Source: Desulfobacterales bacterium (GTDB lineage: Bacteria; Desulfobacterota; Desulfobacteria; Desulfobacterales; JASJAZ01). Taken from it: a DNA stretch of 64,000 nt. A program made the translations under genes and the position numbers. Numbering within the stretch: the first letter of the stretch is position 1; each line of letters begins with the position of its first letter. Positions 1-6,200 of the stretch are shown in pieces. The notes beneath the pieces were generated by a model, which saw only the letters and a list, made by a program, of their open reading frames with translations, was not told the origin of the DNA and ran no database searches. The stretch lies in contig JASJAZ010000072.1 in assembly GCA_030066785.1 (NCBI GenBank), positions 1,066 through 65,065 on the forward strand, written 5' to 3'.

Positions 1-120
1 TATGACGCTAAAGATATAGATGGGGCCGCCCTTGATGCCGATTGTATTTCAATTACACCGATAAAGTGTGATATGACCGATTACCAAATGATCGAGGCCC
101 TGCGAAAGTGGAAAATATAA
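1..120 (+). CDS. surE: 3' end of 5'/3'-nucleotidase SurE (partial, runs off window start)
   Basis: Frame 1 reads YDAKDIDGAALDADCISITPIKCDMTDYQMIEALRKWKI*; D..AL....IS+TP+..D.T matches the SurE C-terminus. Not in the ORF track. Confidence 0.7.
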   Translation, partial: YDAKDIDGAALDADCISITPIKCDMTDYQMIEALRKWKI

Positions 121-287
121 ACCATATTCACCTCGTGCATTAGGGTAGAAAACCTCCCTTAAAGTTACCAAGAGCAGGTGGATTTCTCAAAATGGCACTA
201 TTCATAATGATCCAACTAATTGAGAATCTTGAAATTTGATGAACTTTTATCATTCGAAGATAAATGCAGAGGCATGCAGCGTTTGTC

Positions 288-920
288 ATGTTTATTACTT
301 TTGAAGGCATAGAAGGCGCCGGTAAAACCACGCAGATCAAACGTTTATCGATTCATCTGCAACAAAAGGGTGAAAATTGCATCATTACCCGGGAGCCGGG
401 GGGAACGGCTATCGGCGCTAAAATTCGTGCTATTTTGCTTGATCCCGCAAGCGGTGATTTGGCACCAGAGGCTGAATTATTGCTGTACCTGGCTGATCGA
501 GCCCAACACATCAAACAGGTGATTCAACCTTATTTGAAGGCCGGCAATGCGGTATTATGTGATCGTTTCTATGATGCCACGATGGTCTATCAAGGTTTTG
601 CGCGCGGTTTAAACCCAAGTTTAATTAGGCAATTGCATCAAATCATGTCAATCGATTTGCGCCCGGATATTACCCTACTTCTTGATCTTGCGCCACAGGA
701 GGGTCTTAGGCGCGCATGGGCCGAATTAAAAAAGGGGTCGCGTGTTGGATGCGAATCCCGTTTTGAAGAAGAAACCCTTGCTTTTCACGAAAAAGTTCGC
801 GCTGGATATTTGAAGTTAGCCCACCAAGAACCCCACCGCTTTTGCGTTGTTGATGCACAGGTGGATGAAGAGCAGGTTCATCAACAAATCATTCAAACAC
901 TAGATGAATGGCAAAGATAA
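288..920 (+). CDS. tmk: thymidylate kinase
   Basis: MFITFEGIEGAGKTTQ P-loop, TREPGGT, LLYLADRAQH, CDRFYDAT..YQG; likely start ATG 288 (track ORF starts at 264). Confidence 0.96.
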   Translation: MFITFEGIEGAGKTTQIKRLSIHLQQKGENCIITREPGGTAIGAKIRAILLDPASGDLAPEAELLLYLADRAQHIKQVIQPYLKAGNAVLCDRFYDATMVYQGFARGLNPSLIRQLHQIMSIDLRPDITLLLDLAPQEGLRRAWAELKKGSRVGCESRFEEETLAFHEKVRAGYLKLAHQEPHRFCVVDAQVDEEQVHQQIIQTLDEWQR

Positions 921-999
921 GGATCTTTTTGCGACAGTTTTTTCACTTTATTACAGCACCTGGTAAAGACTATGACCACCGCCCGACAGGCCGTATAAG

Positions 1000-3276
1000 A
1001 TGAACGAATCCATATTGAATTGCATCGGCAATACGCCGCTGGTTAACATTCGGCAATTGAGTCCGAATCCGAATGTAACCCTCCTTGCCAAACTTGAATA
1101 TATGAATCCGGGTGGATCTATTAAAGATCGGGTGGCCTTGGCCATGATTGAAGCCGGTGAAAAATCAGGAGAACTCACTCAAAATAAAACCGTCATCGAA
1201 GCCACTAGCGGCAATACCGGAATTGGATTGGCTCTGGTCTGTGCAGTTAAAGGTTACCGATTGTTGCTGGTCATGTCTGAGGCTGTCAGTTTAGAGCGGC
1301 GTAAAATATTAAAGGCCCGAGGCGCTGATATCCTGCTGACCCCCGGGCATTTGGGAACCGACGGTGCCATTGAAGAGGTCTATCGGATGTTGCGTGAGCA
1401 ACCGGATGCTTACTTCATTACCGATCAATTTAACAATGAGGCCAACTGGCAGGCGCATTATCATGGCACCGCGGAAGAGATCTGGCAGCAGACAAATGGC
1501 AGAGTCGATACGATCATATCCACTATGGGAACTACCGGCACACTCATGGGCCTTCAGCGGCGCTTGAAAGAATTGAATCCGAAGCTGCATATTATCGGTG
1601 TAGAACCTTATCTGGGCCATAAAATTCAAGGCCTTAAGAATATGAAAGAGGCTTATCAGCCCGAGATTTACGATAAAGATCGATTGGATTATAAAATCAA
1701 CATCGATGATGAAGACGCATTTGAAATGTCGCGTAGGTTGGCCAAAGAAGAAGGCCTATTTGTGGGTATGAGCAGTGGTGCGGCCATGGCCGTTGCCTGC
1801 AATGTGGCGCGCGATATGGAAGCGGGCCAGATTGTTGTGATTCTACCAGATGGTGGTGAACGCTACCTCAGCACTCCCCTTTTTGCTGAACGCGAAACGA
1901 TTCAACTCAAATTTTACAATACCTTGAAAAGGTGCAAAGCACCGTTTGCGCCGATTATACCCGGCAAAGTATCGATGTATTCCTGCGGCCCAACGGCCTA
2001 TGCTGAATTAAGTTTTGATGAATGCCGACGGGTTATTTTTTCTGATCTTTTAAGCCGCTACTTGAGTTACCGTGGTTTTAGCGTTCAGCATGTTATGAAC
2101 ATTACCGATTTAGACGACAATACCATTGAATGCTCGGAAAGAGCCGGTGAAGAATTAACGATTTTTACCCAGAAATATATCGATTCTTTTATGAATGATT
2201 TCAATACCCTTGGTGTCAAACCAGCCGAAATGTATCCCAAAGCCAGCGAACATGTAGATGATATGATCCAGTTGGCCAACGTGTTGGTAAAGAAAGGTTT
2301 TGCTTACGAAAAACTGCGCTCGGTCTATTTTGATATTTCCCGTTTCAAGGATTATGGACGACTTTCGGGGATCGATTTAAATAAAATTCGCTTAGGAGCT
2401 ACGGTGGATCTGGATGAATATGAAAAAGATAATCCCCGGGATTTTACACTGCTCAAACGCTGCAAGCTATCTGAATTGAAACGGGGGATATTCGCCAAGA
2501 CCGAATGGGGCAACGTACGACCGTCTTGGCATCTTCAGTGCGCCGCCATGTCAATGCGCTATTTAAGTGCGCATTTTGATATCCATACAAGTCACCGCGA
2601 ACTAATATTTCCGCATCATGAAAACGAAATAGCTATTTCAAAGGCTGCGACCGGCGAGTCTCTGGCCAACTTTTGGCTTCATTGTGACGGTGTGATGGTT
2701 GATGGAAAGCGGGGTGGCAAAAAAGAAACGCCTTATACAATCGCCTTTTTACAGGATCAAGGTTATACCGGTAAGGAAATTCGCTATTGGCTGCTTGCCA
2801 CGCATTATCGCAAACCGGTAAAGTTCTCGCTGGATCGGTTGGAATCGGCCAAACGATCCCTGAAGAGATGGCAAGCCTGTTTGCAGGCGCTTTACCGTAT
2901 TAAAGACGGCCAGCCTTATCCTGACATGGATCAGCTGCTTTATGATATAAAGAATGGATTTCTTGGAGCGCTTGATGACGACTTGAATATTTCAGCTGCG
3001 CTGGCTGCTATTTTTAAACAAATAAAAAAGATCAATACGCTGATCTCCGCAAGAAAAATCGATGATAAAGATGCACAAAAAATATTAGATGCATTTCGTT
3101 CGATTGACACGGTGCTTAATGTCCTCGAGTTTGAGCAGCCGGCAATCGATCTGGCTGTTGCGCAGCTGATTAAACAGCGCGATCAAGCGCGCCGCGCGCA
3201 AAACTGGGAACTTGCCGATAAGCTTCGCCAGCAATTGATGGCCCATGGCATTCAACTAAGGGATGAGAAAATATAA
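1000..3276 (+). CDS. cysM: fusion of PLP-dependent cysteine synthase (CysM-like, aa ~1-297) and a degenerate cysteinyl-tRNA synthetase (aa ~300-758)
   Basis: N-half: NPGGSIKDR (PLP Lys), EATSGNTG, GTTGT, GMSSGA, PDGGERYLST. C-half: FYNTL..CGPT, NITDLDD, WHLQCAAM, FPHHENE, DDDLN and an anticodon-binding tail (ADKLRQQL..GIQLRD). Confidence 0.92.
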   Translation: MNESILNCIGNTPLVNIRQLSPNPNVTLLAKLEYMNPGGSIKDRVALAMIEAGEKSGELTQNKTVIEATSGNTGIGLALVCAVKGYRLLLVMSEAVSLERRKILKARGADILLTPGHLGTDGAIEEVYRMLREQPDAYFITDQFNNEANWQAHYHGTAEEIWQQTNGRVDTIISTMGTTGTLMGLQRRLKELNPKLHIIGVEPYLGHKIQGLKNMKEAYQPEIYDKDRLDYKINIDDEDAFEMSRRLAKEEGLFVGMSSGAAMAVACNVARDMEAGQIVVILPDGGERYLSTPLFAERETIQLKFYNTLKRCKAPFAPIIPGKVSMYSCGPTAYAELSFDECRRVIFSDLLSRYLSYRGFSVQHVMNITDLDDNTIECSERAGEELTIFTQKYIDSFMNDFNTLGVKPAEMYPKASEHVDDMIQLANVLVKKGFAYEKLRSVYFDISRFKDYGRLSGIDLNKIRLGATVDLDEYEKDNPRDFTLLKRCKLSELKRGIFAKTEWGNVRPSWHLQCAAMSMRYLSAHFDIHTSHRELIFPHHENEIAISKAATGESLANFWLHCDGVMVDGKRGGKKETPYTIAFLQDQGYTGKEIRYWLLATHYRKPVKFSLDRLESAKRSLKRWQACLQALYRIKDGQPYPDMDQLLYDIKNGFLGALDDDLNISAALAAIFKQIKKINTLISARKIDDKDAQKILDAFRSIDTVLNVLEFEQPAIDLAVAQLIKQRDQARRAQNWELADKLRQQLMAHGIQLRDEKI

Positions 3277-3277
3277 A

Positions 3278-4273
3278 ATGTTACCCACGCTATTTCCCCA
3301 TACGTATATTCGCGCGGCTGATTTGGAAAAACTGCACTTGCTTTTCAATAGCGTCGTTGTTTTGCAACCGGCCCCAGCCGAACTATCGGAAGCAATGCGC
3401 AAATGGACCGATGAACAGTTTTTACAGACTAGAATCCCCATTGATAAGGACAATCAGAGGCTTGAACAAGTATTGGCCGGTTATCGATCATGGGCAGCGG
3501 AGCAGCATCTGGGAGATTTAGCCTTTTTAAAATCGCATTCGCCAGCCCCCCCCTTTAGAGATGCGTCACTGCCCTCTCAAATTCGTTCGCAAATAGCGCG
3601 TAATCTTAAAAACAGCGAGGACTCATTTAAACCCGATCGTCTTTTAAATGACAGAGTATTCTTATCCATGGCGCATAGTTTTGATCAGCAAAACGATGAC
3701 CTGAGTCAAGATTTAGGTAAGTTTTCTGTGTGGCAGCAAGAGCTTTTATCTGATTTATGCAGCACAGATGCCGTCGCCCTTCACAATTTGACCGATGCAA
3801 AAGTGACATCACACGACAATCGAGAACATTATATGATCGAGCAGCGGCTCAAAGCTTGGGCCCATCTATGGCACTATGATGCATCTCCCTCCAAGGTTTA
3901 CGTAACCACCAGCAAAGATGCGTATGCGCATTTATTTGAATATGCAACTGGGGCGCAAGAACTTATCAATTATGACCATCTGGCCATCCCTCATTATCAA
4001 GCGCCCGAATGGCAGAAATGGCAACAGCGATTTTCAAATCGTATGGTCGACTTACTGTCATGCCAATGGACGCAATCGATTGATCTTCATTTCCTTGAAA
4101 CTGATGACCTGAATCCATCAAGTGGTTTATCCATTTCAATCGGTGGATTTCCTAATAGATCACCGTTAGAAGTTTTTAATGAGATAGCTGATCTCACCAA
4201 TGCACCACAATCTTTATCCCCCGAAAATAGCCACGGCAATACATTGATCATTTATCTTGGCCCACCGAAGTGA
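3278..4273 (+). CDS. hypothetical protein, probably co-transcribed with the CysM-CysRS fusion
   Basis: Long ORF; ATG 3278 lies 1 nt after the upstream stop (alternative start 3263); no motif recognised. Confidence 0.75.
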   Translation: MLPTLFPHTYIRAADLEKLHLLFNSVVVLQPAPAELSEAMRKWTDEQFLQTRIPIDKDNQRLEQVLAGYRSWAAEQHLGDLAFLKSHSPAPPFRDASLPSQIRSQIARNLKNSEDSFKPDRLLNDRVFLSMAHSFDQQNDDLSQDLGKFSVWQQELLSDLCSTDAVALHNLTDAKVTSHDNREHYMIEQRLKAWAHLWHYDASPSKVYVTTSKDAYAHLFEYATGAQELINYDHLAIPHYQAPEWQKWQQRFSNRMVDLLSCQWTQSIDLHFLETDDLNPSSGLSISIGGFPNRSPLEVFNEIADLTNAPQSLSPENSHGNTLIIYLGPPK

Positions 4274-4570
4274 GTTCCTGCAGACCGGCCTTTGAATTTC
4301 ATTCATAAAAATAGCGAATCCCATATTATGCTGCGGTTGCATTAATGCACCATTATATACTTGCCAACGTTTTACCATTGATGAAATTTTAGTTAATAAT
4401 AATAGGTTGTTATAATGTTGATTGTATCTCCAAGTTACTTTTATGAAAAAAAATGTTGAAGCCTTGACTCGCCTTGTTAATTAGTATATGGAGTTTTTTT
4501 CCGAATGTTGGAATGAATCAGGTGATAGCAATCACTTTATGTTATTATTTTAAGAAAGGAGGCTTTATAA

Positions 4571-4759
4571 ATGGCTTTTATCCCGACCGTCGATCAAGAG
4601 AAATGCGAAGGCTGCGAAGAATGTGTTGATGTTTGCCCCGTTGAAGTATTTGAAATGGAAGATGGCAAATCAGTACCGGTTAATGCCGATGAATGCCTTG
4701 GCTGTGAAAGTTGTGTAGAAGTTTGCGAACCCGGCGCAATTACCATCGAGGAAACCTAA
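4571..4759 (+). CDS. 2x[4Fe-4S] ferredoxin
   Basis: CEGCEECVDVCP and CLGCESCVEVCE motifs, very acidic 62 aa, strong AAGGAGG RBS. Confidence 0.96.
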   Translation: MAFIPTVDQEKCEGCEECVDVCPVEVFEMEDGKSVPVNADECLGCESCVEVCEPGAITIEET

Positions 4760-4773
4760 ATATTTATATTTAC

Positions 4774-4807
4774 GTTCCTTCTGTTCCAAATGCGGAGCAG
4801 AAGGAAC
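4774..4807 (+). terminator. stem-loop after the ferredoxin gene, probable terminator or stabiliser
   Basis: gttccttctgttcc-aaatgc-ggagcagaaggaac: 14-bp stem with one G-U pair; weak U tail. Confidence 0.6.
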
Positions 4808-5031
4808 TATTCTCCCGACCTTTTCCTTCCTCTATTAGCATGATTTCCCAATAAAAACTCTAAAATCTAGCCGATTCAGCGATCCATCAATATGATGTTA
4901 TTCTCGATTTATCATATGGTGTATGATGGGTTGTAGCAGTTTCAAATCCCTCTCTGTAGTAATGTGGGCACTCATCCATTAAACCATATACAGCTTGCCT
5001 CTGCCAATATTCTATGATAGCTTCACAGCCC

Positions 5032-5364
5032 ATGAAGCAGTATGTGGTTGATGAGTTAAGACTTGAGGATTATGATAGAATCAAAGATTTTTTAGATGAG
5101 CATTTGGAATCCTCACAAATTGATGGCATCTATTGGTTGCCACTCGATCCGACAATTCTATCCGAGGATCAGATATCCCATACCGATTGCCAGCCTTTTT
5201 ACTTTGCCCTCGATTTAGAACCAGATAAACTAACTTGTGAATTTTTGGTGCGAACAAAAAAAAGGGTTCGATGTAGTTGTATGGGGTATGCCGATCCAGA
5301 ACAATGTCATTGGTTGATGCAATACGTTGATCGTATATTTAGAACTTTGCAGATTAAAATTTAG
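5032..5364 (+). CDS. hypothetical protein (Cys-containing)
   Basis: MKQYVVDELR...YWLPL...HTDCQPFYFALDL...RCSCMGYA; protein-like composition. Track start is 5014. Confidence 0.75.
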   Translation: MKQYVVDELRLEDYDRIKDFLDEHLESSQIDGIYWLPLDPTILSEDQISHTDCQPFYFALDLEPDKLTCEFLVRTKKRVRCSCMGYADPEQCHWLMQYVDRIFRTLQIKI

Positions 5365-5453
5365 CAGCCCACCGCTCAAAAACCATGTTTCCCAATATTG
5401 TTCATGGCATAGAAATGATGCCGGCAGGCGAAATCAAAATGCACAAGCTATAA

Positions 5454-6200
5454 ATGCAATCAGATTTTATCTATAGGCTATACACGTATTTTGTTATAGT
5501 GTGGGTTATACTTCTCACACTTATTTTTGGGATGGCGGCCATCATATTATCTTTTTTTAGCAAAACCGGTAATCTGCCACACTTGGCGGCCAGGATGTGG
5601 GGACGGTTGATTCTTTGGGGTAGCGGCATCAAGGTGTCGGTCAAAGGCGCTGCCAACATTGTGCCCAATCGTTCAGCCATATACATGTGTAATCATCAGA
5701 GCAATTTTGACATTCCCGTGCTGCTGGCCTTTTTACCGGTACAATTTCGCTGGCTGGCTAAAGCCGAATTATTCAGAATTCCGATTTTCGGTCGGGGTAT
5801 GCGCGGTTGCGGTTATATCAGCATTGATCGCTCGAATCGGCCATCTGCATTTGAAAGTTTAGCCCTTGCCGCTCGAAAAATTCAATCCGGCGTTTCGGTA
5901 CTCATCTTTCCCGAGGGTACGCGAAGCTCAGATGGCTGTATCAGGCCTTTTAAAAAAGGCGGATTTGTAATGGCGCTCAATGCCAAGGCGCCAGTGTTGC
6001 CGGTCATTATTAATGGTACGTGGGACATTATGTCCAAAAGCAAGCTATTGATTAAACCGGGCCGCGTTCAACTAGAAATTAAAGAGCCTATTGAGACCAT
6101 AACATATTCGCGTGATAGACTAGAAGAATTAATGCATAACGTCCGAACGGTGATTGAATCATCCTACAATCGGGGAAAACGCTTATCAAAACAATGTTAA
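5454..6200 (+). CDS. plsC: 1-acyl-sn-glycerol-3-phosphate acyltransferase
   Basis: NHQSNFD and FPEGTRS motifs, N-terminal TM segment. Confidence 0.92.
   Translation: MQSDFIYRLYTYFVIVWVILLTLIFGMAAIILSFFSKTGNLPHLAARMWGRLILWGSGIKVSVKGAANIVPNRSAIYMCNHQSNFDIPVLLAFLPVQFRWLAKAELFRIPIFGRGMRGCGYISIDRSNRPSAFESLALAARKIQSGVSVLIFPEGTRSSDGCIRPFKKGGFVMALNAKAPVLPVIINGTWDIMSKSKLLIKPGRVQLEIKEPIETITYSRDRLEELMHNVRTVIESSYNRGKRLSKQC

Follow-up and report, generated by a model that had tools for sequence, protein, structure and literature searches.

HisZ, a paralogue of histidyl-tRNA synthetase (HisRS), is the regulatory subunit of HisG, the first enzyme of the histidine pathway; it is a separate subunit that binds the amino acid and has no anticodon domain. 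In eukaryotes, the HisRS-like domain of GCN2 is a pseudo-synthetase fused to a kinase, where it senses uncharged tRNA and is not specific to one tRNA. Among the relatives of cysteinyl-tRNA synthetase (CysRS), MshC keeps the ATP-dependent chemistry and is without the anticodon domain. Table 1 of a review of duplicated synthetases gives only CysRS* and MshC as CysRS paralogues, and the review places CysRS*, which aminoacylates and is also without an anticodon domain, in the Desulfobacterales (PMC9437257, drawn on here in part). The gene described here lies in a stretch of 64,000 nucleotides from contig JASJAZ010000072.1 (positions 1,066 to 65,065, forward strand) of the Desulfobacterales bacterium assembly GCA_030066785.1, hereafter the window. 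It is predicted to encode a cysteine synthase whose C-terminal two thirds is a catalytically dead CysRS paralogue. MshC, CysRS*, and the CysRS-like half of the fusion all derive from CysRS, with the fusion being the reverse case of MshC and CysRS*, since its chemistry has been lost and its anticodon domain kept. No description of a cysteine synthase-CysRS fusion was found in the full-text literature, in a search that had subscription journals and supplements outside its range, and the fusion is not mentioned in the portions consulted of PMC2922099, PMC9437257, PMC5388404, PMC5424206, and PMC8762117.

The fusion belongs, by analogy, with HisZ and GCN2, in which a pseudo-synthetase is likewise linked to an enzyme. 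Its synthetase motifs are lost beside a true synthetase in the same genome, and its coupling to the effector enzyme is physical, within one open reading frame (ORF). As with HisZ and HisG, an inactive synthetase paralogue is physically coupled to the enzyme making that amino acid, beside the real synthetase, although here the link is covalent and the anticodon-reading residues are the best-kept feature. Like GCN2, the protein joins a dead aminoacyl-tRNA synthetase domain to an enzyme, and the proposed signal is the binding of tRNA without its charging, whereas the output of GCN2 is a kinase and not a biosynthetic enzyme for the cognate amino acid. SepCysS is a fold type I pyridoxal 5'-phosphate (PLP) enzyme, and PALP domains are of fold type II. 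The SepRS/SepCysS system is like the fusion in that it links a PLP enzyme to tRNA-Cys (PMC5424206, seen in part), but the fusion has a PALP domain, no SepRS was found with it, and there is no evidence for a tRNA-bound substrate.

Along the 758 aa protein, the Pfam domains are PALP (residues 7-284, 9e-71), tRNA-synt_1e (317-618, 6e-77), DALR_2 (654-709), and CysS_C (714-757). A sequence-only reading of the window, made without database searches, had described an intact PLP domain followed by a CysRS half with its ATP-binding motifs gone. The PLP motifs SIKDR (40-44), TSGNTG (69-74), and GTTGT (177-181) are indeed all in the translation, and every PLP-site motif of the CysK/CysM O-acetylserine sulfhydrylases (TIGR01136) is shared. 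In the NCBIfam collection the fusion scores above the cut-off for the cysKM subfamily TIGR01136 (367.5 bits, cut-off 344.15) and below the equivalog cut-offs for cysK (323 against 351) and cysM (352 against 394). The best PDB matches of the PLP half have values of 8e-79 and 6e-71, with M. tuberculosis CysK1 (3ZEI/2Q3B) and Salmonella CysM (2JC3) named. The fusion differs from CysK and CysM in its 460 aa CysRS-like extension and in persisting where no cysE was found. CysRS homology is full-length, across residues 303-756 (8QHP, 3e-92; 1LI5, 9e-74). The score of the fusion against the curated cysS profile TIGR00435 is 355.6 bits, above the cut-off of 340, which explains the database label 'cysteine--tRNA ligase'. 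Against the MshC profile TIGR03447 it scores 173.6 bits, below the cut-off of 485.1, and it has the anticodon domain.

Alignment of the CysRS half to the E. coli enzyme (1li5) agrees with the motif losses that had been read from the letters. HIGH (37-40) has become SFDE (338-341), DDKII has become DDNTI (372-376), HGGG has become HTSH (529-532), and KMSKS (266-270) has been replaced by RGGKK (571-575), encoded at 2710-2724, so that neither the HIGH signature nor the KMSKS loop is present. H234 and E238, which we take to be Zn ligands of the E. coli enzyme, are kept as H539 and E543, and W205 is kept as W510. The Zn-ligand set is completed by C329 and C514, which correspond to C28 and C209, both reported to be Zn ligands of CysRS (PMC5660078, in the part used here). 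The anticodon domain is likewise kept, as had been noted, with DALR_2, CysS_C, and the reader residues in place: R727, R731, W736, D740, R743, and D755 correspond, in order, to E. coli R423, R427, W432, D436, R439, and D451. The four of these at R427, W432, D436, and R439 are the anticodon-binding set that was mutated, based on 1U0B, in a 2026 study of E. coli CysRS (PMC13449415, seen in part). The fusion therefore has the domain order, Zn ligands, and anticodon-binding residues of canonical CysRS (TIGR00435; 1LI5/1U0B; 8QHP), and differs from it in having no HIGH or KMSKS, in its altered HGGG, in the fixed changes E513Q and G509S and a fixed 4-residue insertion, in being joined to a PLP enzyme, and in coexisting with a true cysS. 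Judged by these residues, the fusion is not a CysRS family member in the functional sense, because HIGH and KMSKS, both defining, are missing.

The true cysS is on another contig of the source genome, the assembly of which is 92.9% complete. It scores 443.6 bits and has CGPT...HIGN and KMAKS, so the CysRS half of the fusion is very unlikely to be the cell's synthetase, as the sequence-only reading had supposed before this separate gene was searched for. The source genome also has one tRNA-Cys(GCA), and a cysE-like gene lies just upstream of its standalone cysK (451.7 bits). In other orders, 10 of 10 fusion carriers checked have a canonical cysS, with scores of 530-600 bits. Among 151 genomes of the window's order, at least two cysS-type matches were found in 126, one in 19, and none in 6. 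These results bear on the idea that the fusion is still a synthetase, a bifunctional protein that both makes cysteine and charges tRNA-Cys through non-canonical motifs. Its profile score above the cysS cut-off would fit this, as would K574 at the position of K269, the related fusions with HLGN and KMSRS, a further fusion (P0125) with HIGN and KMSKS, and four metagenome-assembled genomes (MAGs) in which no other cysS was found. However, HIGH is wholly gone from the window copy, HGGG reads HTSH, the family consensus has Glu in place of the second KMSKS Lys and also at the fourth HIGH position (canonically His or Asn), and canonical cysS is present here and in all ten other-order carriers. Charging by this protein is thus considered highly improbable.

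It is clear that the fusion is not peculiar to this genome. Each of the 120 best homologues is likewise a fusion, in a single ORF of 749-768 aa, with 66-99% identity and 98-100% query coverage; those that are named come from Desulfobacterales and Desulfonema magnum and are labelled 'cysteine--tRNA ligase'. When 401 genomes were sampled across the phylum, 132 gave a fusion-type match at a threshold of E <= 1e-110, nearly always in open frames of about 760-850 aa. An assembly artefact was considered and ruled out, as 120 independent homologues and most of the 132 matching genomes also have the single frame.

Across 121 close relatives, K42, TSGNTG, and G177, T178, G180, and T181 are invariant, with T179 varying between Ser, Thr, and Ala. 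The catalytic motifs of the CysRS half are eroded throughout the family. At the HIGH positions the relatives have His (105), any residue, Gly (108), and Glu (115), and neither His nor Asn is ever found at 341; at the KMSKS positions they have Lys (108), Val (85), Asp (99), and Glu (99), the Glu being at 574. C329, C514, H539, and W510 are present in 121 of 121, and E543 in 108. The window copy is an extreme of the family, as S338 is shared by 4 of the 121, D340 by 6, and N374 by 2. DDNTI and SFDE are thus, on this alignment, peculiarities of the window lineage and not of the fusion family. It had also been considered that close homologues might keep HIGH and KMSKS, with this copy alone under relaxed selection. 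This is not what was found, since the relatives have HxGE and K-V-D-E, and the CysRS-like half of the window copy is 59% identical to other fusions, where the family mean is 62%.

A wider alignment holds 64 fusions, 58 of them, the window copy among these, each from a locus in a different genome, and 6 being cluster representatives; one (L068, from G001) stops short of the C-terminus, so reader counts are out of 63. The PLP motif S[IV]KDR is in all 64. The full H-x-G-[HN] is seen in 7 and KMS[KR]S in 13. Retention of the Zn ligands, as claimed from the window alone, holds for all four in that copy but not universally, for C329 is found in 57 of the 64, C514 in 59, and E543 in 50 (replaced in 7, 5, and 14, respectively). 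The readers have fared differently. R727, D740, D755, and an aromatic residue at 736 are found in 63 of 63, R731 in 61 (Lys in 2), and R743 in 62 (Lys in 1). In four fusions (L108, P0126, P0129, and P0130) HIGH, KMSKS, and the Zn ligands have all been lost and the readers are kept, with R731K in P0130 and R743K in P0129. The replacements differ by lineage, the window's order having HxGE with K(V/M)DE and other orders HLGN or HLGL with KMSRS. The selective nature of the loss, which had been the central point of the sequence-only reading, is therefore seen across the family, with motifs eroded, three Zn ligands invariant and the fourth at 108 of 121 in close relatives, and readers invariant or conservatively replaced. 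This suggests that the need for charging was lost early in the fusion clade and that selection acts to keep the contact with the anticodon. Because Zn ligands are lost in some fusions while the readers stay, tRNA binding rather than cysteine binding would be the best-conserved property.

In a FastTree tree of the CysRS halves, in which branch support is unchecked, the fusions form one clade nested among HIGN-type CysRS, with the exception of P0125, and the window copy is not on a long branch. P0125 is a cluster representative of 768 aa, a cysteine synthase-CysRS fusion with intact HIGN, HTGG, and KMSKS, and it groups with the canonical CysRS P0154 outside the main fusion clade. This fusion may have arisen independently and may be truly bifunctional. 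A short CysRS paralogue was also seen at two loci, L042 (G028:C35) and L043 (G032:C79), in open frames of 503 and 448 aa. This has HIGN or HVGN and an intact KMSKS, with an altered Zn site (WNIQD or WNVQD, and HHDY for HHENE); the match ends near model position 400 and the C-terminal anticodon domain seems to be absent. From its sequence, this paralogue may be the Desulfobacterales CysRS* of the passages used from PMC9437257.

The CysRS half does not look like a domain in decay. Among 14 fusions from different GTDB families, the PLP half has a mean pairwise identity of 75%, the CysRS-like core 67.5%, the helical and anticodon part 50%, and the whole CysRS-like half 62%. The mean for canonical cysS of the same order is 64.6%, from the 20 best-scoring sequences, a choice that biases it to conserved ones. 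The window copy is 74% identical to other fusions in its PLP half, and its lower CysRS-like value was given above. These identities indicate that the dead half is under purifying selection. A comparison of 120 fusions with 71 canonical CysRS shows fusion-specific residues fixed around the old active site (E341, R344, S509 where canonical sequences have Gly, Q513 where they have Glu, R533, and I546), as well as a fusion-specific insert L-K-R-G at 493-496. The old active site looks as though it has been remodelled and is not drifting or plainly decaying.

This conservation can be set against the possibility that the dead half is an inert scaffold for folding, oligomerisation, localisation, or recruitment of the product of the next gene, c1, and binds neither tRNA nor cysteine. 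As a scaffold would allow, the protein can do without its catalytic motifs and, in some lineages, without the Zn site. Yet in 63 of 63 fusions each reader is either unchanged or exchanged for a similar residue, in a domain that is otherwise the least conserved part (50% mean identity), and this pattern is hard to explain without RNA contact. A scaffold role is accordingly rated as quite unlikely.

The preferred reading, with a rough probability of 0.5, is that the CysRS half is a tRNA-Cys-binding, non-charging module on a functional cysteine synthase, coupling synthesis to tRNA-Cys or cysteine status. The database name 'cysteine--tRNA ligase' would then probably be wrong, the protein being a cysteine synthase that binds tRNA. 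As the residue conservation suggests, the dead half would bind tRNA-Cys through its anticodon without adenylating or charging. In the window lineage the Zn pocket is retained and would probably hold either cysteine or the tRNA's cysteinyl end. Through a flexible tether to the PLP domain, cysteine synthesis would be coupled to tRNA-Cys or cysteine status, much as GCN2 reads uncharged tRNA with its HisRS-like domain, or as HisZ makes HisG sensitive to histidine. The adjacent c1 is a candidate third component.

In an AlphaFold2 (AF2) model of the fusion (mean predicted local distance difference test score, pLDDT, of 86; predicted template modelling score, pTM, of 0.58), the linker at 290-301 and the KMSKS loop at 572-577 are below a pLDDT of 50. 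The PLP and CysRS-like halves appear to be flexibly tethered in this model. With a pTM of 0.58 and no confident inter-domain geometry, no interface can be claimed between them.

A flexible tether would also suit tRNA-dependent chemistry, in which the dead half holds an aminoacyl-tRNA-Cys and the PLP domain modifies the residue, for example by beta-replacement to Cys-tRNA-Cys or by making a persulfide on it. The anticodon readers and the Zn pocket are kept, the protein persists without CysE, and SepRS/SepCysS is a precedent for tRNA-bound cysteine synthesis (PMC5424206, as far as it was drawn on). No enzyme known to load a precursor on tRNA-Cys was found, however, as the best match to the SepRS profile TIGR00470 in the source genome has 31 bits against a cut-off of 381, and SepRS was not found with this profile in four other genomes (G001, G135, G092, and G099). 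Canonical cysS is present, and where the fusion is the sole CysK/M-type enzyme, free cysteine for every purpose must come from it. The persulfide synthase activity of CysRS has been tied to the KIIK lysines K73 and K76 and the KMSK lysines K266 and K269 (Akaike 2017, PMC5660078, in part); in the fusion these positions read N374, E377, R571, and K574, so three of the four are gone. The suggestion of the sequence-only reading that an aminoacyl-tRNA is presented to the PLP site thus found no support, with no SepRS found, a low-confidence linker, and a pTM of 0.58, and chemistry of this kind is improbable. A specific form of it, a SepRS-independent tRNA-linked route to cysteine or persulfide, with docking by the anticodon, the 3' aminoacyl end at the Zn pocket, and the PLP domain (perhaps with c1) making or modifying the residue, has little probability.

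The role of the PLP half was addressed through a survey of cysK and cysE in the 71 genomes of the order that are at least 90% complete. A fusion-type PLP match is in 64 of these, a standalone cysK (at least 410 bits) in 52, and a cysE-like gene (158-210 bits), usually beside the standalone cysK, in 53. The two are discordant in three genomes, with cysE only in G023 and G060 and cysK only in G030. Neither was found in 17 of the 71, and 16 of those 17 are fusion carriers (16 of 64 carriers). In five of the 16 (96-100% complete), cysE was not found at E 1e-10, bar one 44-bit match to hexapeptide repeats. Going by these searches, no CysK/M enzyme other than the fusion was found in about one carrier in four, where the fusion would act without CysE. 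As no cysE was found where the fusion is the sole CysK/M, its acceptor there is probably not O-acetylserine made by CysE. O-phosphoserine-using enzymes of the CysM and CysK types exist. The PLP half is probably independent of CysE, and its acceptor may be O-phosphoserine and not O-acetylserine. Among its best 60 PDB matches no O-phosphoserine-specific solved relative appears by name, so use of O-phosphoserine is something that we infer.

Feedback inhibition of CysE by cysteine is the usual control point of the cysteine pathway. The absence of a detected cysE in 16 of the 64 carriers means that this point would be missing there, which would suit a fusion that is a cysteine sensor only, in the manner of HisZ, with the Zn pocket binding cysteine to feedback-inhibit the synthase and the anticodon domain as structural baggage. 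The invariance of C329, C514, H539, and W510 in close relatives, with E543 in 108 of 121, would fit as well. This explanation is nevertheless unlikely, since Zn ligands are lost in several fusion lineages and readers are kept in all 63, and since HisZ has no anticodon domain, while in the fusion that domain carries the most conserved residues.

Some further observations were made on these genes. The cysE-like gene of the source genome, at G000:C152:7271-8803 (L047/L010), directly upstream of the standalone cysK, has 168 bits, where the TIGR01172 cut-off is 210.65. All 53 cysE-like matches in the order are below this cut-off, so the order seems to have a divergent type of serine acetyltransferase. 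PLP matches of the fusion score class (350-374 bits) also occur in frames of 302-340 aa in G014, G051, and G058, so the PLP half seems to exist unfused as well. In G058 (2 contigs), a canonical cysS is the only cysS found. In CysE or CdiA-CT, a C-terminal Ile tail inserts into the CysK site. An autoinhibitory tail of this sort in the fusion was ruled out, as only 15 of 121 sequences end in Ile.

Table 1. Positions in the window of the fusion gene, its parts, and its neighbours
Feature	Positions	Strand	Evidence
Fusion ORF, 758 aa (P0001), cysteine synthase plus predicted CysRS-like pseudo-synthetase	1000..3276	+	ORF list, translation, Pfam, NCBIfam
PLP domain, fold type II, CysK/CysM-type, residues 1-296	1000..1887	+	PALP 9e-71; TIGR01136
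PLP Lys K42	1123-1125	+	Translation
Inter-domain linker, residues 290-301 (12 residues)	1867..1902	+	pLDDT <50 in AF2 model
CysRS-like Rossmann/connective-peptide (CP)/stem-contact (SC)-fold core, residues 303-620	1906..2859	+	tRNA-synt_1e 6e-77; alignment to 1li5 and 8qhp
Span of four kept Zn/cysteine-site residues, plus W510	1984..2628	+	Alignment to 1li5; 121 relatives
C329; C514; H539; E543	1984-1986; 2539-2541; 2614-2616; 2626-2628	+	Codons of Zn/cysteine-site residues
HIGH remnant SFDE, residues 338-341	2011..2022	+	Alignment to 1li5; 121 relatives
KMSKS remnant RGGKK, residues 571-575, in low-confidence loop	2710..2724	+	Alignment to 1li5; AF2 model
Helical bundle plus C-terminal anticodon-binding domain, residues 621-758	2860..3273	+	DALR_2, CysS_C
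Anticodon-reader set R727, R731, W736, D740, R743, D755	3178..3264	+	Alignment to 1li5; fusion alignment
c1, 331 aa protein of no known family, candidate partner	3278..4273	+	ORF list, locus comparison, profile searches
Thymidylate kinase (tmk)	264..920	+	Conserved directly upstream of fusion

The ATG of c1 is one base past the TAA of the fusion, with an alternative ATG at 3263 that overlaps the fusion by 14 nt (Table 1). No Pfam or NCBIfam family was found for c1 or for the five relatives scanned. A word-index search gave only 2 homologous proteins, and the distribution described here comes from profile searches. At 22 same-order loci the contig runs on for at least 1 kb past the fusion, and in 21 of these a c1 homologue is directly downstream on the same strand; the exception is in G026, and L063 and L064 end too early to be counted. 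In L072, going by the profile-match coordinates, c1 follows the fusion at a distance of 55 nt. For other orders, 35 loci were parsed; c1 was not found downstream in any, and murJ is the next gene in 6 of them. There is a c1 match in 66 of the 71 order genomes, single except in G001 (three fragments) and G009 (two), and in 39 of 151 phylum genomes. In G001, the c1 homologue is in pieces with in-frame TGA stops, and the fusion there is truncated. Families that are positive for c1 are also positive for the fusion (f97, f106, f108, and f113, each 4/4, with f92 and f105), and none was found in the fusion-free families f90, f91, f93-95, f99-104, f107, f109, and f110. The fusion is present and no c1 was seen in f96 and f98, and five c1-positive genomes have no fusion at the threshold used. 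In family f108, a c1-like gene is directly upstream of the fusion (G169, G210, G246, and G278).

Structure prediction says little about c1. Its AF2 model has a pLDDT of 74.7, and Foldseek gave no PDB match at E <= 0.001. A wide VIA-align search gave a best Z of 5.0, to a DUF1537 domain, with weak nucleotidyltransferase-like and GT-B rows, none of them convincing. A complex prediction of c1 with residues 1-640 of the fusion, which excludes the anticodon domain, scored 0.00 and had no controls; it weighs neither way. Neither c1 nor P0273 is in the ESM Atlas.

Upstream, loci L056-L066 of the order share a conserved block of lptD (on the opposite strand), surE, a gene for an HD and OB-fold protein, tmk, and the fusion. 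Downstream of c1, at 5014-5364 on the plus strand of the window, there is a 116 aa ORF with no Pfam family, a homologue of which has the same position after c1 in G036 (L115). There is no Rfam match in positions 1-6000 of the window at E <= 1, and promoter and terminator scans came out near shuffle expectation. A look-up of RNA data sets for positions 1000-4273 listed none.

Several of the results weigh against a tRNA-binding, non-charging cysteine synthase with c1 as its partner. The argument for tRNA binding is drawn from residue conservation only. Allosteric coupling between the halves is without structural support, given the AF2 pTM, and the cysS set used for comparison has the bias described above. 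The second KMSKS Lys (K269) is still Lys in the window copy (K574), although the family consensus is Glu, and seven fusions from other orders have near-canonical HLGN with KMS[KR]S and might still be active. In four MAGs (G001, G135, G092, and G099; 75-94% complete) no cysS-type gene other than the fusion was found; incompleteness may account for this, yet there is room for residual charging in some lineages. As to c1, it is away from the fusion in three near-complete genomes (G026, G058, and G077), the link between the two is one of phylogenetic profiles, confounded by shared ancestry, and the housekeeping gene tmk upstream is as conserved in synteny as c1 is downstream. A separate observation concerns the fusion of G001 (L068, on G001:C5, in a MAG that is 91% complete), the frame of which ends before the anticodon domain; no canonical cysS or SepRS was found in that genome.

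In this phylum of sulfate reducers, a third of the genomes sampled (132 of 401) carry a gene that is labelled as an ordinary cysteine--tRNA ligase, and in the window's order the sequence evidence is against that label. Metabolic reconstructions would be corrected in two ways: the fusion would supply no second CysRS, and in about a quarter of carriers it would be the sole CysK/M-type synthase found, with no CysE found. The graded series from HLGN with KMSRS, through HxGE with KVDE, to loss of the Zn site, with the readers held or conservatively replaced, is a natural experiment in the passage from synthetase to pseudo-enzyme. If tRNA-dependent chemistry were true, sulfate reducers would have a second, SepRS-independent, tRNA-linked route to cysteine or persulfide. 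If instead tRNA-Cys is read by the dead half, the fusion would be a bacterial example of an amino acid biosynthetic enzyme wired directly to its cognate tRNA, and control of biosynthesis by tRNA status would be testable with one purified protein.

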